From an uncultured Candidatus Poseidoniales archaeon (lineage in GTDB: Archaea; Thermoplasmatota; Poseidoniia; Poseidoniales; Thalassarchaeaceae): DNA of 60,821 nucleotides. Below, piece after piece: positions 4,932 through 14,243 of the stretch (the stretch's first letter is position 1; each line of letters begins with the position of its first letter). Both the position numbers and the translations under genes were made by a program. Under the pieces are notes generated by a model. That model was not told the origin of the DNA. It made no database searches and was given only the letters and a program-made list of their open reading frames with translations. The DNA lies in NCBI GenBank assembly GCA_902530535.1, contig CACAAP010000005.1, forward strand, positions 1-60,821. The letters are read 5' to 3'.

Positions 4932-6164
4932 GTGGGTTCACGCAGATGTGTGAACAACGGTACTCATGAAGACCTTCGCAAGTCTGAAAGCGCGTTTACA
5001 ATTTTCTCTGACCCTTCAACTCTCCCCCATATCGCCTTACTCGTGATATTATCAGGTTCACTGTATGGTGCAATGAGTATGGATGTATTCGGATCGGAGA
5101 GCCAAGGCGCAGCAATATTTGTCTCTCTATCACTATCGTACATGGTTGCGGCATTGATTCGTCCCAGCAGACTGGGAAGATTCCTACTTACAGTCGAAAG
5201 CAATGGTGAAGGAGTACTAAAGAGGAAATACCTAACAAAAGGTGTGATTAAGACCCTACCCGTTATTGCCCTAGCAACCTTAATCTGGTACGGCTTTAAC
5301 ACCATTCTAAACAAAGAAAATTTGAACGATTTGAAATTGATTCTAGCAATGATGTTCATTGCAATGTCGTTGTTTCAGGGACTTACTCTGACTGTAGGTT
5401 CTATTGAGTACGGGAAGAAAATCCGAGGTCCGCCCAGAGATAGTAGATCTGGAGTTTATCCAACGCTATTTAGAATATTAATTTCTTTACTTTTACTCAC
5501 ACCTCTAGTTTGGTGGTTTGGATATGGCGCTGTTAATCCCTCAAATGCGAATTTCTCGACCAACTTGGTGTGGTTCATTTTCCTGATCACAATTGTTTTT
5601 CTGGGAGTATTTATGGAGCGTTATACCAAATCATCCAGAGAGGGGGCGGAAGTAGATGGACTAGCTCGAGATAGAGCTTATTTTCTTATTTTCATCACTT
5701 CCTGCTGGCATCTTCTAAGTTCATGGAGAAGGGCTCCATTCACCGTAGATCAGTCTTCAGTCGGCCTCTTTATTGAAGAGAGCATTCTGATGTCAATTAC
5801 TATCGTTTTGGCAGTTTGGTCATTGTCAAAGAAAGGTCATAAGAGAGGTTGGAGAATTTTCCAAGGGCAATCAGCAATTTTCTGGGGAGTGTGTTTCGGA
5901 CTTGCATATTGCGGAAGTGTGTCTTCCTTGACTGTGCTTTCCGAGGGCAGCCTAATGACCACAACTGCTATCGGACATGCTATCACTGCAATTGTGATGT
6001 TAGCGATGTGTCCAATCGCGCTCTCTCGTGTAGGGCTATCCGAGGAATTAGAGGCACAACTTGGGGCTTCAGAGCATTCACTGACTCCTGAGGAAGAGCC
6101 TCATTTCCAACCCGCTGGAGTTGAGGAATCTGTTGAGAATGATATTGTTGAGATAGTTCACTAG
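4932..6164 (+). CDS. Polytopic membrane protein, unknown function (start uncertain)
   Basis: 410-aa ORF with about 10 hydrophobic segments and an acidic C-tail. Confidence 0.7.
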   Translation: MGSRRCVNNGTHEDLRKSESAFTIFSDPSTLPHIALLVILSGSLYGAMSMDVFGSESQGAAIFVSLSLSYMVAALIRPSRLGRFLLTVESNGEGVLKRKYLTKGVIKTLPVIALATLIWYGFNTILNKENLNDLKLILAMMFIAMSLFQGLTLTVGSIEYGKKIRGPPRDSRSGVYPTLFRILISLLLLTPLVWWFGYGAVNPSNANFSTNLVWFIFLITIVFLGVFMERYTKSSREGAEVDGLARDRAYFLIFITSCWHLLSSWRRAPFTVDQSSVGLFIEESILMSITIVLAVWSLSKKGHKRGWRIFQGQSAIFWGVCFGLAYCGSVSSLTVLSEGSLMTTTAIGHAITAIVMLAMCPIALSRVGLSEELEAQLGASEHSLTPEEEPHFQPAGVEESVENDIVEIVH

Positions 6165-7066
6165 AGGCCGCTAACAACGGCTACAAGCCGTAATCTTCCA
6201 ACTAAATCATCGCTTGCTCTAGCACCAAGAATAACCTGGCAATCCTCATCTAGGGTTGATACGAAGGCCTCTGAAACCATGTTCAGGTGACCTAGCGTCA
6301 TATCTGGTCCCCCCTCCACTTGTATCATACATCCTTTGGCCCCATCGATCGATATCTCTGATAGGGGTGAGTTTCTTGCCATTCTAACGACCTCGTCTGG
6401 ATCTGAAGTAGCCCCATTACCGACTATCAATGTCGCATTACCTGGCCTACCAACTATTGTTCGAAGGTCCATCAGATCGAGATTCATCTTCCCGACCCTG
6501 GCTAGAGTTGTAACCAGACCTTCGATTAATTCCCCTATCCATTCGGACCCCATCTTCCAGTCAGATTGACGATGCCTGGCCTGCCAGGCAAGTCTCTCAA
6601 GGCTGACTCGAATGCACAGATCAGAGTTCCTCTCTATTGCGGGAATGGCCTTGTCTGCAATAGCGGAACGTAGAGGTTGTTCGGCAAAGGGCATTCCAAC
6701 AATACTGATGACAAGGCTTCCTGCCTCTGAGGATCGAGCAGCAATTTCTGCGGCCGCTCCGGAACCAGTTCCCCCTCCTAAGGCGGCAAGGATGATTACG
6801 AGTTCCGAGTTTTTTAGCATCCCTTGGATGTTGGCTACTCCCTCGTTGAGACGATGTGCTGCCAAATTTGGCAGTGCGGCTGTTCCATTTCCACTTCCTG
6901 ATGCATCCAGATGAAGGCAATGGGCTTCAAATTCAGAAGAGAAAGAAGATTCATCAGCGTCAATAAGCAATAACTCGGAGAGTTGTTGACACCTCCCATG
7001 TGCACGTGAGGACCACTTGCAACCTATTCCACCGACGCCCACAATTAGTATGGAGCCTGGTTCCAT
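6161..7066 (-). CDS. Divergent FtsZ/tubulin-family GTPase
   Basis: IVGVGGIG, LGGGTGSG tubulin signature, T7-like MNLDLMD, C-terminal GAKGCMIQVEGGPDMTL...VILGA...VVSGL. Confidence 0.85.
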   Translation of the reverse strand: MEPGSILIVGVGGIGCKWSSRAHGRCQQLSELLLIDADESSFSSEFEAHCLHLDASGSGNGTAALPNLAAHRLNEGVANIQGMLKNSELVIILAALGGGTGSGAAAEIAARSSEAGSLVISIVGMPFAEQPLRSAIADKAIPAIERNSDLCIRVSLERLAWQARHRQSDWKMGSEWIGELIEGLVTTLARVGKMNLDLMDLRTIVGRPGNATLIVGNGATSDPDEVVRMARNSPLSEISIDGAKGCMIQVEGGPDMTLGHLNMVSEAFVSTLDEDCQVILGARASDDLVGRLRLVAVVSGL

Positions 7067-7477: not shown

Positions 7478-7541
7478 TAGTGGAACGTTAATATCCCCCT
7501 TTTTTCTGGGTCAAATGTAGCAGATGCTAGGTGAACGAAAG

Positions 7542-8345
7542 ATGGCATCTAGACAGAAGACACTTGTTCTAATCTTAGTATCAGTATTTGTTGCAGGGTC
7601 TGGTGAGGCTTTGCATAGTGGTGTCGGAGGAAATGCGAATGGCCAAGGTGAGGTTTCCATCGCTGGGTGCACCTGTCATGCAGAGGAGCCAGACAATTCT
7701 GTTACAGTGATTATCGATGGAGTTCCTTTCCACTATGCACCGGATACCTCCTACGAGATGAAGCTACAGCTAATTGGAGGGCCTGAGGCAAATCTTGATT
7801 CGCATACTGCCGGATTTGCCATGAGGGTCAGTGAGGGGTCGCTTGGCGCATCGGAAGGATTCGAGTCAATGGTCCAAAATTGGGAAGGAGATGTGACCAC
7901 CCTAACACACACCGATGCAGGATCGAGAACCTCCGATAGGTCGTGGATGTTTGTTTGGACGAGTCCGTCTGAAGGTTCGGGTTCAGTGGTTTTCAATGTT
8001 GCAGGGAACTCAGTAAATGGGGATTTAGCCCCATCTAGTCTAGACCGTTGGAATCGCCTTACTGCCAGCATTGACGAAGGTGAAGACAATGGAAGGACAA
8101 AAACCGTTTTCTCAGGAAATGGGGACATAAACCCCCCAGCCCCAGTTGAAGGAAAGAAAGACATTCACAAAATGGGAGCTAAACTCCTAGCCCACTGGTT
8201 GGGACTCCTTGGATTCGGAGCAGTAATGCTGGTTATTTTGTTCTGCGGGCTATTCCTTAGATACGGATTCTCCAGGCATTACAAGGGTAGAAGTAACCTA
8301 CTGAAGCTAAGAATAAAACATCTTAGAAGAGGCGATCAACTATGA
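7542..8345 (+). CDS. Secreted, C-terminally membrane-anchored reeler-like (choice-of-anchor V-like) protein with CxCH motif
   Basis: SD AGGTGA then ATG 7542; signal peptide ending GEA; GCTCH; reeler-like AGFAM, LTHT, WMFVWTSP, VVFNVAGNSVNGD; C-terminal TM plus basic tail. Confidence 0.75.
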   Translation: MASRQKTLVLILVSVFVAGSGEALHSGVGGNANGQGEVSIAGCTCHAEEPDNSVTVIIDGVPFHYAPDTSYEMKLQLIGGPEANLDSHTAGFAMRVSEGSLGASEGFESMVQNWEGDVTTLTHTDAGSRTSDRSWMFVWTSPSEGSGSVVFNVAGNSVNGDLAPSSLDRWNRLTASIDEGEDNGRTKTVFSGNGDINPPAPVEGKKDIHKMGAKLLAHWLGLLGFGAVMLVILFCGLFLRYGFSRHYKGRSNLLKLRIKHLRRGDQL

Positions 8346-8791
8346 AAGACGATACGGTAATGAGGCTTTTGCGACAAGTAAAGTCCGGAAAGGTCAGCGT
8401 AGAAGATGCCAGAGTGGCTCTTGAAGATGCCGCGCTGACGGAAGAGTCCTTCGAAGCAGCAGTCAATCATGGAGTATTCAACGAAGTGAAGCCCGGGACA
8501 ATTGTAAGAGCTAGTCTTGCACCTTCCGGGGATTCGTGGCTTATCATAATGGTAGGACTATGGGGGATTCTTTGGACTCTTTATTGGGCGGGAGCCCTAG
8601 CATACGGACTATACCAACACTGGGATCAACAACTGCTCGCATTCAATCTGGCAATGACTCTTCTCACACTAATAATCATGGGGATTGTGTATCTAAAATA
8701 TGTACTTCCAGACGTGATAATTGTCAAGCATAGGAGAAACAAGTACATCACAAGTCACGATACAAACTCTTGGAAAAAGTATGAGGTCTGA
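8342..8791 (+). CDS. Small 2-TM membrane protein, probable accessory subunit of the Rieske/cyt b operon
   Basis: ATGA overlap with upstream gene; short helical N-term (LLRQVKSGKVSVEDA); two hydrophobic helices. Confidence 0.7.
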   Translation: MKDDTVMRLLRQVKSGKVSVEDARVALEDAALTEESFEAAVNHGVFNEVKPGTIVRASLAPSGDSWLIIMVGLWGILWTLYWAGALAYGLYQHWDQQLLAFNLAMTLLTLIIMGIVYLKYVLPDVIIVKHRRNKYITSHDTNSWKKYEV

Positions 8792-8793
8792 AA

Positions 8794-9642
8794 ATGGCAA
8801 GGAAATTCAAGCTACGTCCTATCTCCTCTGAGGATGATGCTATTCACGAGAGGAGCGGCGTAATAGACAGAAGAGAGTTCATGAGGCTTTCTTTCAATAC
8901 AGCAGCCGGATTGATTACTACAGCCTCACTAGGCAGTGTGGGGTTCGCTTCTTTCCTAATGGGCCAAGCGGAAGGAGGTACTTCGGACTCTTCCATAAAA
9001 TTCTATGTCCCCAAGGGTTCAGACGTGTGGTACAATAACATGGACAAGCAGCCCATGACGCTACAATCTTTCGTAGACGAGTCCGCAAACACAACTACTG
9101 GAATGGTTGGAGCTGCAGGACTTTGGTCCGGCTTACCCATCATAGCCACATACCTCCCTCACGAGGAAAACAAAAACAAGCCATTAGAAGCAGACACCCC
9201 CAGATTCCAAATGATGGATGGATACACCGCAGGTGGTGCATACGTAGGATCCGGCTATGAAATCGAAGAAAAAGAGGAATTTGCATCATTGAATATTCAT
9301 GATAACCTGATCATTGTTTTCGCCAGATGCCCTCACTTATGCTGCATTCCTGGGTGGCAATTGGTGAGTAACGACTTCACTGCGGATAGCTGGCTCCCTG
9401 GCGGAACTGACACAAGTGGAAACAAATCGTTCTGCATCTGCCACTCTAGCAGGTACGACCACACTGTAATAGAGAAGAATACTGCTAGAAATAGATCCAA
9501 TGGACAAGAGTTTGACTTCATAGGAGTAAAGAAGACCGGTGGGCCTGCTCCGTACGGCATACCACTGATTCCGTTTACAGTAAGTGGCGGGGTCATTGAG
9601 GCGCTTCCAGATTTCATGGACTGGTACACATTCTGCGGGTAG
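8794..9642 (+). CDS. Rieske [2Fe-2S] protein with Tat signal/anchor (PetC/QcrA-like)
   Basis: DRREFM twin-arginine motif; CPHLCC and CICHSSRY cluster motifs; GGPAPYGIP. Confidence 0.95.
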   Translation: MARKFKLRPISSEDDAIHERSGVIDRREFMRLSFNTAAGLITTASLGSVGFASFLMGQAEGGTSDSSIKFYVPKGSDVWYNNMDKQPMTLQSFVDESANTTTGMVGAAGLWSGLPIIATYLPHEENKNKPLEADTPRFQMMDGYTAGGAYVGSGYEIEEKEEFASLNIHDNLIIVFARCPHLCCIPGWQLVSNDFTADSWLPGGTDTSGNKSFCICHSSRYDHTVIEKNTARNRSNGQEFDFIGVKKTGGPAPYGIPLIPFTVSGGVIEALPDFMDWYTFCG

Positions 9643-9651
9643 GTGAAAAAT

Positions 9652-10524
9652 ATGATTCAATTCTGGTTCCTATGGATTTTCATAGCTTTCGTTGTCGTAA
9701 TTGTCGCCTTCACACTGAGAAGAGAAAGGGACGATATGCCAAGGAAGGACATCTTGAGAGCTGTAGAGACAAATGCTGGTAGCATGGGTCTAGCCGAGAA
9801 GTTGTTCCTGTGGGCTTTCTCTTGGCTAGACACCAGATTCAGGATCCAAGACTACTGGGGCATGAGCAAAGACTCCTACTACAGCATGCATCGTCAGATG
9901 CCTTTGACTCATGCAGAGAAGTACAAACTGAGAATAATTTGGTATTGGTACCCGCTCTACTGCTTGGGCGGAATTTCATTCCTGGCATTCATCATCTTGG
10001 TGATTACTGGCACCATTCTAGGATTCTACTATGTCCCGGGAGGCGATTTGGACTCTGATCCGACACCGGCCTATGCATCGATGGAGTTCATCATGCTAGA
10101 GTTGCCTTTCGGATACATCATCAGATCTATCCACCATTGGGGAACGCACTTCTTCGTTGCGGCAGTTTTCCTACACATGTGCAGAGTCTATTTCACTGGG
10201 GCATACAGAAACCCCAGAGAACTGAACTGGTTGATCGGAGTCGCTCTAATGTTCTTCTCGATTTTCTTCGGTTACTCGGGATATTTGCTGCCCTGGGACA
10301 GTTTGGCCTTTGGGGCGGCCACCATCGGCATCAACATGGCCATGGCCACCCCGCTAATTGGGGAGTGGGTGGCTAATGCTATGTTCGGAGGGACTACATT
10401 GACGGGCCAGACAGTAGTGAGGATGTACTTCCTACATGTGTTCGTACTGCCGCTGATTGTTACTGTACTCATTCTAGCACACCTATTCATTGTGTGGGTA
10501 CAGGGAATTGCGGAGCCGCACTGA
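9652..10524 (+). CDS. Cytochrome b6-type subunit (PetB/QcrB-like)
   Basis: SD AGGTGA; LYCLGGISF, IRSIHHW...FLHM, PRELNWLIG, SGYLLPWD, FLHV-(14 aa)-LAH, C-term QGIAEPH. Confidence 0.96.
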   Translation: MIQFWFLWIFIAFVVVIVAFTLRRERDDMPRKDILRAVETNAGSMGLAEKLFLWAFSWLDTRFRIQDYWGMSKDSYYSMHRQMPLTHAEKYKLRIIWYWYPLYCLGGISFLAFIILVITGTILGFYYVPGGDLDSDPTPAYASMEFIMLELPFGYIIRSIHHWGTHFFVAAVFLHMCRVYFTGAYRNPRELNWLIGVALMFFSIFFGYSGYLLPWDSLAFGAATIGINMAMATPLIGEWVANAMFGGTTLTGQTVVRMYFLHVFVLPLIVTVLILAHLFIVWVQGIAEPH

Positions 10525-10533
10525 GGTGATTAG

Positions 10534-13347
10534 ATGGGGATAATAGAGAGATTTGGAAGAATTGCGGATACCTATGTTAGCGAGAAGGAGCAGCTCCTAG
10601 GGGCGGAAGAGGAAAGGAGGAGGGTGCATACTGGCCATGGTTTCTGGCCGACGGAAGTTCTCAGGGACACTATCATTTTCGCTTCGATAGTGATGGTAAT
10701 AGCATTCTACTCGTGGATTATTCCCCCTCCTCTGCACAATGCAGCAGATCCGTATGCTCAGGCAGGCTTCGTTTTCCCGGATTGGTACGTTCTATTCTCA
10801 TACGGTTACCTAAGATGGGGCGAGTATTTGCCTCAATTCGACATCCCTGCTGGCCCAATAGGGGAGTTCTTTGGTCAGCCAATCGTGTCATGGAACGCTG
10901 GAGTATGGGGGGCGATGATCACTGGGCTCCCAGTTGCTATTCTTGCACTGCCACCTTTCATCATTGGAAAGAGAGAGAAGAGAGGGGTAGAGGACCCCTG
11001 GTTCGCCACTGCGGGAGCCGTTTACCTTGCACACGTCTGGTTCATTTCTGTATTCTCGATTAATATCTTCCTGGAGATGTATGGCCAGAATCGTAGTGAT
11101 TACTGTTGGGCCGGGTCTCATGGGACCTTCTTCTGCGGTACTCAACCCCCATGGACTGCTGAGGTATTCAATGCGGTTCCATGGATCCTCACAGGGGTTT
11201 TCATCTTCGTCGTACTATACTTCTCGGTGAGGAAGTTCCTGATAGGGCCGATGGGCTCCAGGCTGACTCCAGTTCTTGGCAGACAGATAGCCGTAGGGTC
11301 TGTGATAGCCACCGTTCTCCTATGTACAGTTACTTGGCCGGTCTACGAAAACGGATTCTGGAAGCAGAGAGGTCTGGGAACAATGGGATTCTGGGAGTAC
11401 CAGTATGATGCCAAGCTCGTGGAGTTGGATGGAATAAGGGGACAGCCGGGAGATACCCTAATCCATGTGGATAAGGGACCTGTATGGGACGAGTGGGAGG
11501 ACGAATGCCTCCCATACGAGCAAACGAGCTCCCTGTCTGTCTGGGAAACTATGGAAGAGGGGACGACGCATGCTGAATGGTGTATTTTGCCCGCAAAACA
11601 TTTTGTGAACTGGGGAATTTACCAACCAACTCGTAGCCAGATAGTAGACTTCAGCGGGGTTAACGGTCATGCCGACACCCAAACGTCTAGGAATATTGGG
11701 GCGAATGAAATCATCTACCAAGGAGCAGAGGATGGCAGTCCGATGTCAATTTCTGAGTCTATCCAGTTCGAGGTTGAGGACCTTGGCATATCCAAGGTTC
11801 AAACTGACATAGGTTGTAACTTCAGAACTACAGTAAGAAATGCTGGTGAGCACTCTCAGAGCCTGACTCTAACAGATGATTCTGGCCAGGAGCTTTGGTC
11901 CAACTCGGGCTCCACCTGCGAATCAGGAACAATGTACCTGGATTCTGGAAGATCCTACACGATTTCCTTCACTACCCTGTCCGAGCAGGTCAATGACTCG
12001 GTCACAATGATTTCAGACTTCTCAGCAGTTTCCTATCAGCCTCTACTGCTCAACGATGATGGAACTGCACTAATCAGATCAGAAGTCAGCCTCAGCGATG
12101 AGGAACTGTCATCGATGTCGGTCACAAATCCCACCTACAAGAAGAATCCAAAGAGTCTCGATGCCAAGCTGATCTACTCGATGTTCATACCATGCCTAGG
12201 AGTAGGGGCTCTTGTTTTCATGCTCCTCAGGAGCATGGCTCGTGGATACGAATGGGAGATGAACAAGTGCTATGGGTGCGATTTATGCGATGATGCCTGC
12301 CCTGTGAGGTTATTCAATGCTGGAGATAAACTGAACATAATCTACAACACCTGGAATAACGAAGACGACGGAGTCCCACTTTACTCGTGCCTTACCTGCA
12401 CCGCCTGTACAAATGCCTGTCCACAATTAGTCGACTACGACTCATATATTGACATCAGAAGAAACCTTGTCGTAGGTGGCCCTCCTGCTACGGAAATCCC
12501 TCACACAGTGCTGCAAGCAGTACTAGCTGCTGAAGCAGAAGAAGACGCGGACGACTCATTCATCCCTGTGGAGGAGTACCCGTTAGACTCTAGCATAGGT
12601 TACTATCCAGGATGTGTAGACTACATTGACCAAGAGATGGTCTTCAGTCACGTGAACAAGGGCACGATGGATCTCGGAGATGCCACAACTTCCGCGTTCA
12701 CGATTTTCGAGGAGATGGGCGAGGATGTGACATACCTGGGTCGCGACTTCCTGAAGTGCTGCGGGCATGACCAGAAATGGCAGGGGATGAGTGAGGTCTT
12801 CGAGAAGTTGAAGGCTTACAATCAAAAGAAGCTCGGAGAGAGTGGAATAGAGACTCTAGTAACTTCTTGTGCTGAGTGTTTCAGAACCTTCGCCTTAGAC
12901 TATGAGTTAGATGAGATGAAGGTAATGCACACCACAGAATTCCTCGTGGAGAAGGGTTTCGACATGGGCTTGAAGTCAAATGATGAGGTCACCGTAACTT
13001 ACCACGATCCATGCAGGCTGGGAAGGCAGATGAATATCTACGACGAGCCGCGGGATCTGGTAGGTTCTGTAGAGGGAGTGAATCTAGTGGAAATGGAACA
13101 CACCGGAGAAGACGCCCTCTGCTGTGGGGTCTCCAGCATGATGTCATGTAACGAGAACAGCAGGGCACTAAGGGTCCAGAGATTCGATGAAGTAAGGGAA
13201 ACAGGAGCAGAAATCATGCTGACATCCTGTCCAAAATGTGTTGCTCATTTCGAGTGTCTTAAGTTCGAGGGAGATCCAAGACATGACTTCGAGATTCTAG
13301 ATGTTGTAAGCTTCCTGGCTAGGCAGATAGAAGAGTCCAGAGGGTAG
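10534..13347 (+). CDS. Cytochrome b6f-type subunit IV fused to an extracytoplasmic domain and an HdrD-like (2x[4Fe-4S] + 2 CCG) Fe-S oxidoreductase
   Basis: N-term FWPTEVLRD, AADP, FPDWY (PEWY motif). C-term CYGCDLCDDACP, CLTCTACTNACP, YYPGC, KCCG, SCAEC, YHDPCRLGR, LCCG, SCPKC. Confidence 0.93.
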   Translation: MGIIERFGRIADTYVSEKEQLLGAEEERRRVHTGHGFWPTEVLRDTIIFASIVMVIAFYSWIIPPPLHNAADPYAQAGFVFPDWYVLFSYGYLRWGEYLPQFDIPAGPIGEFFGQPIVSWNAGVWGAMITGLPVAILALPPFIIGKREKRGVEDPWFATAGAVYLAHVWFISVFSINIFLEMYGQNRSDYCWAGSHGTFFCGTQPPWTAEVFNAVPWILTGVFIFVVLYFSVRKFLIGPMGSRLTPVLGRQIAVGSVIATVLLCTVTWPVYENGFWKQRGLGTMGFWEYQYDAKLVELDGIRGQPGDTLIHVDKGPVWDEWEDECLPYEQTSSLSVWETMEEGTTHAEWCILPAKHFVNWGIYQPTRSQIVDFSGVNGHADTQTSRNIGANEIIYQGAEDGSPMSISESIQFEVEDLGISKVQTDIGCNFRTTVRNAGEHSQSLTLTDDSGQELWSNSGSTCESGTMYLDSGRSYTISFTTLSEQVNDSVTMISDFSAVSYQPLLLNDDGTALIRSEVSLSDEELSSMSVTNPTYKKNPKSLDAKLIYSMFIPCLGVGALVFMLLRSMARGYEWEMNKCYGCDLCDDACPVRLFNAGDKLNIIYNTWNNEDDGVPLYSCLTCTACTNACPQLVDYDSYIDIRRNLVVGGPPATEIPHTVLQAVLAAEAEEDADDSFIPVEEYPLDSSIGYYPGCVDYIDQEMVFSHVNKGTMDLGDATTSAFTIFEEMGEDVTYLGRDFLKCCGHDQKWQGMSEVFEKLKAYNQKKLGESGIETLVTSCAECFRTFALDYELDEMKVMHTTEFLVEKGFDMGLKSNDEVTVTYHDPCRLGRQMNIYDEPRDLVGSVEGVNLVEMEHTGEDALCCGVSSMMSCNENSRALRVQRFDEVRETGAEIMLTSCPKCVAHFECLKFEGDPRHDFEILDVVSFLARQIEESRG

Positions 13348-13351
13348 GAGA

Positions 13352-13684
13352 ATGACCAAGATAGGTGACGTCCTGAAGAGAAGGGCTGTTGAACAGTCAA
13401 GAATTAGGATGCAGCTGAACTCGGTTAGAGCTGAGGAGGAAGCTCTGCTGAAAGGAGGGGAAGACACAGTTGCCTGGGTAAAGGAAGAGTTGTGCATAGG
13501 TTGCGATCAGTGCACAATAGTATGTGATGACGATGCTATAGAATTGTACGATACGCCGCTGCTCAGTCCTTTAATGGACGTAGACGTAAATAAAAAGGCA
13601 AAAATTCTGAGGGACCCTTGCACTGGATGCAAGATTTGCGTTCTAGCATGCCCCACCGATGCGATAATAATGATTGACAGGTGA
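13352..13684 (+). CDS. 2x[4Fe-4S] ferredoxin with N-terminal helical extension
   Basis: CIGCDQCTIVC and CTGCKICVLACP; AGGAG SD. Confidence 0.92.
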   Translation: MTKIGDVLKRRAVEQSRIRMQLNSVRAEEEALLKGGEDTVAWVKEELCIGCDQCTIVCDDDAIELYDTPLLSPLMDVDVNKKAKILRDPCTGCKICVLACPTDAIIMIDR

Positions 13685-13688
13685 TTGA

Positions 13689-13973
13689 ATGGGGAATGAT
13701 GATCCAGTCAGATTCGGGGCAGAGTTTGGCCCTCATAGAACCAAGAGAGCGAGTGGGGTTTCATTATCAACCTTCAAGACCCTCGTGTGGGTTTCAAATC
13801 TTGGTGGTCTATTCCTATTCGCAATTGGAATGGAGTTGATGATAAGGGGGTCATTCTGGTTCGGAATCTCTTGCATAGTAATTGGAGTGGCTATTGCACT
13901 CTTCCCTTCGAACTATGAGATAGTAGGAATGGAGGAATTGGGCGAAGGATGGGGGATGGGGGAAGAAGAATAA
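13689..13973 (+). CDS. Small 2-TM membrane protein
   Basis: AGGTGA SD; two hydrophobic helices; operon spacing of 4 nt. Confidence 0.7.
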   Translation: MGNDDPVRFGAEFGPHRTKRASGVSLSTFKTLVWVSNLGGLFLFAIGMELMIRGSFWFGISCIVIGVAIALFPSNYEIVGMEELGEGWGMGEEE

Positions 13974-14243
13974 ATGATAGGGACGCTATTCCAGAACAGA
14001 GTCTGGAATGAAATCAAAAAAATCCCCGTGGGCCAAACCAGGACATACAAAGAAATCGCAGTTTCTATCGGAAATCCTGGATCATCAAGAGCTGTTGCCA
14101 ATGCTTGCGCAGCCAACCCAAATCCAATCACAGTACCATGCCATAGAGTAATTCGTTCTGATGGTAGACATGGAGGATACAGTGGACAGGGCGGAGATTC
14201 GGGGAAGAGTGCCCTAATTTCATCGGAAAGGGAATTGAGCTAG
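13974..14243 (+). CDS. ogt: O6-methylguanine-DNA methyltransferase (MGMT/Ogt, minimal catalytic domain)
   Basis: IPVGQTRTYKEIA, RAVANACAANP, PCHRV active site, GGYSG. Confidence 0.9.
   Translation: MIGTLFQNRVWNEIKKIPVGQTRTYKEIAVSIGNPGSSRAVANACAANPNPITVPCHRVIRSDGRHGGYSGQGGDSGKSALISSERELS

Follow-up and report, generated by a model that had tools for sequence, protein, structure and literature searches.

Introduction

Iron-sulfur (Fe-S) arms of the HdrD type, in which two cubane [4Fe-4S] motifs are followed by two five-cysteine CCG domains, are known on HdrE- and NarI-like membrane anchors. In HdrDE of Methanosarcinales the Fe-S module is joined to a membrane b-type cytochrome system, and in EtfD/EMO a five-helix NarI-like membrane domain and an HdrD-like arm follow each other on one polypeptide. 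In the structural descriptions available, both systems have the cubane pair close to the membrane, with the non-cubane clusters placed distally; for EtfD/EMO they describe non-cubane clusters that transfer electrons entering from a cytoplasmic carrier and are not catalytic, a histidine that blocks the substrate site, and a distal cluster short of one cysteine (PMC13083937; bioRxiv 10.64898/2026.08.18.745454). Here we describe such an arm on a third anchor. It is encoded in a stretch of 60,821 nucleotides (hereafter the window) from an uncultured Candidatus Poseidoniales archaeon (Marine Group II, family Thalassarchaeaceae; contig CACAAP010000005.1), where a single gene joins subunit IV of a Rieske/cytochrome b6 complex to an HdrD-derived Fe-S arm predicted to lie on the cytoplasmic (n) side of the membrane. 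We tentatively propose that this arm exchanges electrons with ferredoxin-type carriers, with entry into the complex as the favoured direction.

In the surface ocean, Poseidoniales rank with the most abundant archaeal groups, and their "complex III" has been described just as non-canonical (PMC6336850). The closest arrangement in print is that of the soil lineage Ca. Angelarchaeales, in which unfused hdrD-like and rnfB-like genes lie beside complex III and for which the same entry role for ferredoxin was proposed (Diamond et al., 2022; PMC9038741). Our own soil Thermoplasmata loci show this arrangement as well. However, the genes described for Ca. Angelarchaeales are separate neighbours, and the passages dealing with them mention neither a fusion to subunit IV, nor a split past the Fer4 domain, nor Marine Group II (PMC9038741). 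A survey of archaeal gene fusions mentions fusions between Hdr subunits in its text (PMC11237513), and our literature search, which did not extend to supplementary tables that might list it, brought up no account of a subunit IV-HdrD fusion. Judged from the text of these sources, what is already in print is the gene neighbourhood in one soil lineage, and what is new is that a Rieske/cytochrome b6 complex bears the HdrD-type arm, and does so universally within an abundant group of marine archaea.

The core of the window complex resembles b6f- and b6c-type complexes in having a four-helix cytochrome b6 with CxGG and H-x14-H motifs, a separate subunit IV with a PEWY-type motif, and a preceding Rieske gene. 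It differs from them in its subunit IV, which has three extra helices, an outside beta-sandwich and a ~370-residue Fe-S arm. To our knowledge, an exchange of electrons between ferredoxin and the Qi (quinone-reducing) site, although long discussed for chloroplast cyclic electron flow, has never been seen hard-wired; the ferredoxin entry suggested here for the window complex resembles the ferredoxin-dependent cyclic flow proposed for b6f.

Gene Structure and Predicted Topology

The fusion gene occupies positions 10534..13347 of the forward strand and runs in a single reading frame from ATG to stop, encoding 937 residues. This agrees with an earlier, sequence-only reading of the same DNA, whose named N-terminal motifs were likewise all found (FWP at residues 37-39, ADP at 71-73 and PDWY at 82-85), together with the basic RSMAR stretch at 565-569. 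Two ferredoxin motifs of the form CxxCxxCxxxCP (C579/582/585/589 and C619/622/625/629) begin exactly where that reading had put them, nucleotide 12268 corresponding to residue 579, and its spacings for the two CCG domains hold as well (C694-X47-C742C743-X35-C779xxC782 and C827-X35-C863C864-X34-C899xxC902). Pfam places a Fer4 dicluster at residues 575-631 and recognizes CCG (PF02754) in two stretches with E 2.4e-22. An artefact of assembly or gene calling can be ruled out, the best 150 matches within the order being open frames free of stop codons.

In a Kyte-Doolittle scan the chain shows six hydrophobic segments (46-64, 126-144, 162-180, 214-232, 252-270 and 546-564), with which the helices of AlphaFold2 models are consistent. 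The lysine- and arginine-rich parts of the chain are the N-terminus, residues 146-155 and 233-251, and the stretch past helix 6. Because there are six helices and because of where these basic loops fall, the predicted topology has both termini inside, with the Fe-S module in the cytoplasm; the helix count and the side of the membrane given by the sequence-only reading are thus retained. The module would lie on the n side, that of the Qi/heme cn site, again as had been proposed, and the adjacent cytochrome b6 has the heme cn motif CLGG. An Fe-S module outside the cell was ruled out by the even number of helices, the basic loops on the N- and C-terminal sides and the acidic nature of the middle domain.

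From its N-terminus the protein is built as follows, with all coordinates on the forward strand. Residues 1-185 (10534..11088) form the part that resembles subunit IV and contains helices E, F and G, PDWY lying in the outside loop past helix 1, at the outer quinol site. Residues 186-272 (11089..11349), which are specific to Poseidoniales, comprise an outside loop with Cys 191 and 201 and then helices 4 and 5, and residues 273-545 (11350..12168) make up an acidic domain, predicted to be outside, that has a beta-sandwich core at ~388-506 in AlphaFold2 models. Helix 6, in residues 546-568 (12169..12237), brings the chain back into the cytoplasm. It is followed by an HdrC-like 2x[4Fe-4S] ferredoxin domain (residues 569-660; 12238..12513), in which Fer4_8, Fer4_9 and Fer4_10 match at 575-631 and which begins ~10 residues past the helix, and finally by an HdrB-like module of two CCG domains with ten cysteines (residues 661-937 and the stop codon; 12514..13347). 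Both this architecture and the topology are, in our view, very probably correct.

The Membrane Part as Subunit IV

At E <= 0.1 Pfam makes no direct call of Cytochrom_B_C (PF00032) on the fusion protein, and a phmmer search of the protein against the PDB matches b6f subunit IV (7r0w_J) weakly, with E 0.53. Searched by phmmer among 1.84 billion representatives, residues 1-280 find 92 proteins at E <= 0.001, and distant relatives obtained in this way (E 1e-17 to 1e-4, 30-42% identity) exceed the PF00032 cut-off, P0181 with 48.7 bits and P0203 with 44.4 bits. A subunit IV profile made from the window part and 14 plain relatives matches the C-terminal halves of cytochrome b in the PDB with E 1.4e-18 and b6f subunit IV with E 2.8e-13. 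By this transitive and profile evidence, and not by a direct Pfam call, the N-terminal part is assigned as a subunit IV homologue, which bears out, by an indirect route, the PetD-like N-terminus proposed earlier. PDWY is invariant in 8/8 fused relatives and in all 121 Marine Group II sequences. The gene order is also that expected of a subunit IV, with the Rieske gene at 8794-9642, the cytochrome b6 gene ending at 10524 and the fusion ORF (open reading frame) starting at 10534.

The Iron-Sulfur Arm Compared With HdrD and EtfD/EMO

The arm has the domain order of HdrD, two cubane [4Fe-4S] motifs and then two CCG domains with five cysteines each, and the earlier assignment of a heterodisulfide-reductase-like module with ten CCG cysteines is confirmed by Pfam and the motif table. 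Its CCG motif signature, CCG/CAEC/CCG/CPKC, equals that of 5 out of 11 HdrD rows from Methanosarcinales, anaerobic methanotrophic archaea (ANME) and Methanoperedens, the other six rows differing at one non-cysteine position (CSKC). Identity to HdrD of Methanosarcinales, ANME-2 and Methanoperedens is 40-44%. Residue 781, within the CxxC of CCG domain 1, is a glutamate and not the blocking histidine of EtfD/EMO, and by the marks that set EtfD/EMO apart the Marine Group II module looks, as far as its sequence goes, like HDR (heterodisulfide reductase).

To place the module we ran a quick tree search over 248 columns of the CCG region in 50 rows, with support from the Shimodaira-Hasegawa-like approximate likelihood ratio test (SH-aLRT) and a root on a single EtfD-like row. 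All 21 subunit-IV-associated modules fall into one clade (SH-aLRT 95), which is sister to, and not inside, the HdrD of Methanosarcinales, ANME-2 and Methanoperedens (SH-aLRT 94); several short fused rows, P0188, P0171 and L004, have long branches. Within this clade 11 of the 21 modules are without one cysteine of CCG domain 1, which belongs to the distal cluster, and CCG domain 2 is intact throughout (21/21). The variants are CSG in 4/4 Marine Group III-type modules, CAEG in 3/3 soil-type modules and P0188, and CVG or CTG in P0157, P0171 and L047. The positions that vary are those that also vary in EtfD/EMO. Such losses argue, by sequence comparison, that a function common to the whole clade cannot require a complete distal cluster.

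The window system is like HdrDE in domain order, in its ten cysteines and motif signature, in identity and in its place as a sister clade, and also in that the Fe-S module is joined to a membrane b-type cytochrome system. It departs from HdrDE in its anchor, which in place of a NarI-like HdrE is a covalently fused subunit IV from a Rieske/cytochrome b6 complex; moreover, it has a dedicated ferredoxin, its relatives lose distal-cluster cysteines, and mcrA was not found in the host genus. With EtfD/EMO it shares the layout of one polypeptide with a membrane domain and then an HdrD-like arm, whereas it has a subunit IV where EtfD has five NarI-like helices, and a full set of cysteines with glutamate in place of the histidine. 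Mycobacterial EtfD (9ojn) is its best solved match both by sequence (E 2.1e-21) and by Foldseek (E 9.7e-15), further Foldseek matches of the CCG module being LutA and HdrB (5odc_B, E 1.2e-6). The sequence match to 9ojn_A is confined to residues 615-905 and leaves the NarI-like membrane domain unmatched. In contrast, a paralogue of 662 residues from the same genome (L002:484-2472) matches 9ojn_A over both membrane and soluble parts with E 2.2e-101, and its motifs are CSG/CPHC/CPFC, against CCG/CAEC in the window. As an observation of its own, this EtfD/EMO-type protein, along with a gene cluster for acyl-CoA dehydrogenase, EtfB and EtfA, suggests that Marine Group II has an actinobacterial-type link between electron transfer flavoprotein (ETF) and quinone.

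Distribution and Related Architectures

Of 201 Poseidoniales genomes searched, 200 gave a match to the fusion, among them all 61 of high quality, with 24/24 genera represented. Nearly all of the best 150 matches in the order are 910-990 residues long and cover the full query; five are shorter, several of these at contig ends. Across the 121 sequences from Marine Group II, conservation is highest in the Fer4 part (mean identity 0.94), whose eight ferredoxin cysteines are retained in 121/121. Nine of the ten CCG cysteines are likewise present in 121/121, and C782 in 120/121, one sequence having phenylalanine. The sequence-only reading would have been weakened by CCG cysteines that vary among orthologues; they are kept in Marine Group II (all ten in 120 of 121), and it is in the wider set of relatives sharing the operon context that 11 of 21 have lost one.

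Distant fused relatives have 543-789 residues and combine Cytochrom_B_C, Fer4 and two CCG domains. A scan of species genomes recovered the gene in Marine Group III, in several Thermoplasmata groups known from metagenome-assembled genomes (MAGs) and in one Geothermarchaeales MAG. Among 29 related loci, 5 have a single fused gene and 24 are split, always past the Fer4 domain, so that subunit IV remains fused to Fer4 (341-440 residues where starts are clear) and the CCG gene is adjacent and often overlapping. Splitting into separate, unlinked genes was another finding that could have told against the fusion: the genes are indeed often separate (24/29), yet they stay adjacent, with the subunit IV-Fer4 unit kept. 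From the constant position of the split and the adjacency of the two genes, what is conserved, on sequence grounds, is that subunit IV anchors the Fe-S arm, and the HdrC/HdrB-like junction is variable. The order Rieske, cytochrome b6, subunit IV-Fer4(-CCG), ferredoxin is retained in Marine Group III and Thermoplasmata loci.

Some of these loci depart from the window in other ways. In the Marine Group III-type loci L041-L055, L066 and L072 the cytochrome b6 motif is SLGG and not CLGG, the heme cn cysteine being lost, and the neighbouring CCG gene of the same loci has CSG and not CCG; as they belong to a single lineage this co-occurrence counts as one event, and the two changes may or may not be linked. 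In the Geothermarchaeales MAG (L003:4795-9561) and another archaeal MAG (L014:7629-12075), an HdrA-like flavoprotein of ~1010-1024 residues with Pyr_redox_2 and Fer4 is encoded within ~1-1.5 kb after the short fused gene; the former locus also has a second HdrD-like gene and the latter an HdrC-like gene.

The Predicted Ferredoxin Partner

The gene that follows the fusion (13352..13684, forward strand) begins 4 nucleotides past its stop codon and encodes a 110-residue 2x[4Fe-4S] ferredoxin with an N-terminal helix (Fer4_21, E 7.3e-12). The rnfB model TIGR01944 matches it with E 3.1e-11 and 43.2 bits, under the cut-off of 68.7, by the Fer4 part alone. Marine Group II has been reported to be without RnfACDEG, with the exception of "RnfB" (Tully, 2019; PMC6336850), and we infer by sequence comparison that this reported "RnfB" is the 110-residue ferredoxin. 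In all 11 sampled genomes of its own family the pair of ferredoxin and 94-residue membrane protein genes follows the fusion. A ferredoxin ORF also follows in 19 of 24 split loci, and of the other five, four end at or just past the CCG gene and L056 has tblastn fragments of a ferredoxin in two frames. In Marine Group III-type loci the neighbour is either Flavodoxin_1 fused to ferredoxin (L045, L052) or a polyferredoxin (L053), and in soil Thermoplasmata a ferredoxin with a proline-rich tail. We note in addition that where the window has its 4-nucleotide gap (13341-13352), several relatives (L090-L094) and the RNA-library contig X2 have ~340-350 extra bases between the fusion and ferredoxin genes.

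Complex prediction with residues 565-937 of the fusion and the ferredoxin gave a score of 0.84, against 0.00 for the best of 3 controls. The docking mark used is attained by 58/80 solved complexes and by 2/110 mismatched pairs, counts that are rough, own alignments having been used. The runs agreed in at least 81% of contacts, with a predicted local distance difference test value of at least 80 for the partner. The contacts involve the N-terminal helix and the cluster loops of the ferredoxin (47-52, 98-103) and residues 652-738, 872-877 and 908-912 of the arm, so that the docking site predicted by these models for the ferredoxin is CCG domain 1.

Proposed Function and Alternatives

We consider it probable that electrons pass along the arm, as along a wire, between ferredoxin-type carriers and hemes. 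This is the most economical reading because the first cubane motif lies ~10 residues past helix 6 and because of the layout of HdrDE and EtfD. By analogy with these two systems, the cubane pair would sit beside the membrane, linked to the hemes of the n side (bH, and heme cn at the CLGG of cytochrome b6), and the non-cubane pair at the far end of the arm, where in the docking models the 110-residue ferredoxin would extend the wire. Its order would then be ferredoxin clusters, non-cubane pair, cubane pair and n-side hemes of cytochrome b6. As to the direction of flow, entry is our tentative preference: low-potential electrons would arrive through the arm, with ferredoxin reduced by the 2-oxoacid:ferredoxin oxidoreductases of these archaea as a likely source, and reduce quinone at the Qi/heme cn site. 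The quinol would afterwards be oxidized at Qo (the quinol-oxidizing site), and the oxidation of ferredoxin would thereby feed the Q cycle directly. The POR_N family (PF01855) of 2-oxoacid:ferredoxin oxidoreductases is present in 59/59 high-quality Poseidoniales genomes.

Several points weigh against this proposal. POR_N was not found in the window's own genome, which is 75% complete. The Marine Group II module is fully HDR-like in its ten CCG cysteines (nine at 121/121, C782 at 120/121), in a signature shared with methanogen-type HdrD and in having glutamate at 781 instead of the blocking histidine of EtfD/EMO. Of 7 genomes sampled from the second Poseidoniales family, 3 have the ferredoxin gene in convergent orientation, and the other 4 do not have it within ~1.7 kb. 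The docking score is a model confidence and no measurement, and the direction of electron flow is argued solely from thermodynamics.

The sequence-only reading had suggested either a disulfide reductase (or thiol oxidase) or an electron-entry module, and the latter fits the comparative evidence better, since 11 of 21 modules lose a distal cysteine, a gene for a low-potential carrier is conserved nearby, and the ferredoxin is predicted on CCG domain 1. A true heterodisulfide-type reductase, in which quinol electrons would pass through the low-potential b hemes and reduce a low-molecular-weight or protein disulfide at the non-cubane clusters, or in a possible reverse variant a thiol:quinone reaction, is nonetheless the alternative that the Marine Group II module itself recalls: it retains its CCG cysteines almost without exception (120/121), has the signature of methanogen HdrD without the blocking histidine, and belongs to the sister clade of the Methanosarcinales, ANME-2 and Methanoperedens enzymes, at the identity and support given above. 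We regard it as unlikely. We know of no CoM/CoB-type (coenzyme M/coenzyme B) substrate in these aerobes, and MCR_alpha was found in 0/16 genomes of the genus (53-89% complete; positive control in 2 methanogens), in line with the earlier presumption of a non-methanogen host. A site that reduces a substrate could do without a partner such as the ferredoxin that the models put on CCG domain 1, and one of the positions lost among the 11 operon-context relatives is that of the bridging cysteine which, in the account given by PMC13083937, is used in the HDR mechanism.

This wire, with its ferredoxin or flavodoxin partners, would also be compatible with electron exit, in which bifurcation at Qo would send one electron to the Rieske protein and the other via bL, bH and cn into the arm, reducing ferredoxin or flavodoxin. 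Poseidoniales, however, are heterotrophs that already produce reduced ferredoxin (POR_N in 59/59 genomes). Furthermore, electrons moving toward the n side do so against the membrane potential, and ferredoxin potentials are far below that of a typical bH; exit is in our judgement decidedly improbable. A core with an added n-side redox module is also seen in anammox Rieske/cytochrome b complexes, in which the module is an NAD(P)-linked flavoprotein and not an HdrD-type arm. For these complexes the module is proposed to serve low-potential electrons, and a role in oxidant-induced reduction, making NAD(P)H, has been put forward (PMC12954380). Quinone-based bifurcation with a cytoplasmic outlet, Qo oxidation driving the second electron via bL, bH and cn into the arm and there reducing a disulfide or the bound ferredoxin, is equally improbable for the window complex; if it were true, abundant ocean archaea would make low-potential reductant straight from the respiratory chain. 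Lastly, the arm might accept electrons from ETF like EtfD/EMO and so tie beta-oxidation to the quinone pool through complex III. EtfD is its best solved match by sequence and fold, genes for acyl-CoA dehydrogenase, EtfB and EtfA are present in the genome (L088:963-3928), and Fer4_ETF_QO was not found in this 75% complete genome. A separate full-length EtfD-type paralogue with CSG/CPHC motifs (E 2.2e-101 to 9ojn_A) exists in addition to these EtfAB genes, which makes such a role for the fusion very improbable; the window module is moreover without EtfD motifs, and its conserved neighbour is a ferredoxin and not ETF. NuoF (PF01512) was also not found in this genome, at the same completeness.

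With its Fe-S arm fixed covalently on the side of heme cn, the complex would be a natural case of cytoplasmic ferredoxin-type carriers exchanging electrons with the Qi side of a b6-type complex. It would account for the orphan "RnfB" of Marine Group II genomes and for a possible route of ferredoxin reoxidation in these heterotrophs. In evolutionary terms the fusion connects methanogen HdrD, EtfD/EMO and Rieske/cytochrome b complexes, with one arm on three different membrane anchors.

Inserted Helices and Outside Domain

Helix 6 of the fusion aligns with the fourth and last helix of the short fused forms; compared with these, helices 4 and 5 and the acidic domain are an insertion, which is absent from six short forms in the same alignment. 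Cys 191 and 201 are retained in 121/121 Marine Group II sequences. The acidic domain, on which the sequence-only reading was silent, comprises ~275 residues (~273-545) between helices 5 and 6; it is non-hydrophobic, contains 17 lysines and arginines against 43 aspartates and glutamates, and is predicted from the sequence to be extracellular. With a mean identity of 0.57 in the 121 Marine Group II sequences, it is less conserved than any other part of the fusion, and it has four invariant cysteines (325, 350, 428 and 462). Searched with Foldseek, the beta-sandwich of its AlphaFold2 models yields generic GOLD-, MAM- and CBM-like sandwiches alone (E ~1e-5), and a cupredoxin or other redox fold is unsupported by these matches. 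Added domains occur elsewhere too: in the relative P0174 a Laminin_G_3 domain follows subunit IV, and in L004 and L047 it is the cytochrome b6 gene that is fused, to Big_5 or to cupredoxin and Big_7 domains.

Operon Neighbours

The genes of the operon, all on the forward strand, overlap or lie 4-9 nucleotides apart, and its core order is Rieske protein, cytochrome b6 with CLGG, fusion, 110-residue ferredoxin and small membrane protein. The divergent Rieske [2Fe-2S] protein (8794..9642, 282 residues) matches TIGR01416 with E 7.8e-8, under the cut-off, and has the motifs CPHLCC and CICH at residues 179 and 214, respectively. The four-helix cytochrome b6-type subunit (9643..10524, 293 residues) matches PF00033 with E 6e-42 and NF002990 with E 2.9e-56; its heme cn motif CLGG is at residue 107, and H164-x13-H178 and H265-x14-H280 have b6-type spacing. 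Upstream of the Rieske gene lies a small membrane protein of 149 residues (8342..8791), DUF7318-like (PF24002, E 1.7e-5, 25.3 bits, under the 27-bit cut-off), whose homologues are upstream of the Rieske gene in related loci as well. The small membrane protein after the ferredoxin gene (13689..13973, 94 residues) has no Pfam or NCBIfam family match. Its gene is found in that position in 11/11 sampled genomes of its own family and 3/7 of the other family, and weak homologues are encoded in L048, L058 and L068.

The first gene of the operon (7524..8345) encodes a 273-residue protein of the "choice-of-anchor V" type (NCBIfam NF041895, E 3.7e-23; no Pfam match), with a hydrophobic segment at its N-terminus and a transmembrane helix at its C-terminus; it is syntenic in 11/29 related loci. 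Neither family matches nor motifs revealed a gene for cytochrome f or a canonical cytochrome c in the operon, and the 273-residue protein may be the outside partner of the Rieske protein. A c-type cytochrome it is not, its CTCH being a CxCH motif, with no CxxCH in the window protein or 13 relatives. GCxCH is shared without change by the window protein and 11 homologues of the Marine Group III type, and the protein might bind some cofactor and replace cytochrome c1/f.

Contigs from RNA libraries of three studies overlap the operon. One of 5073 nucleotides, 95% alike, spans 8794-13783, from the Rieske gene into that of the 94-residue protein, and its fusion ORF is without insertion or deletion; pieces at least 99% alike cover 9797-13494. 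As DNA can be present in such libraries, these contigs are no proof of transcription, they do not allow expression to be ranked, and gaps in their coverage are uninformative.

Two further ORFs flank the operon. Directly past the stop codon of the 94-residue protein gene begins an 89-residue ORF (13974-14243, forward strand) that consists solely of the DNA-binding domain of O6-methylguanine-DNA methyltransferase (PF01035, E 9.2e-31). On the reverse strand, at 6161-7066, a 301-residue ORF belongs to the FtsZ/tubulin family (Tubulin E 5.8e-18, FtsZ_C E 1.3e-16) and is short for an FtsZ.

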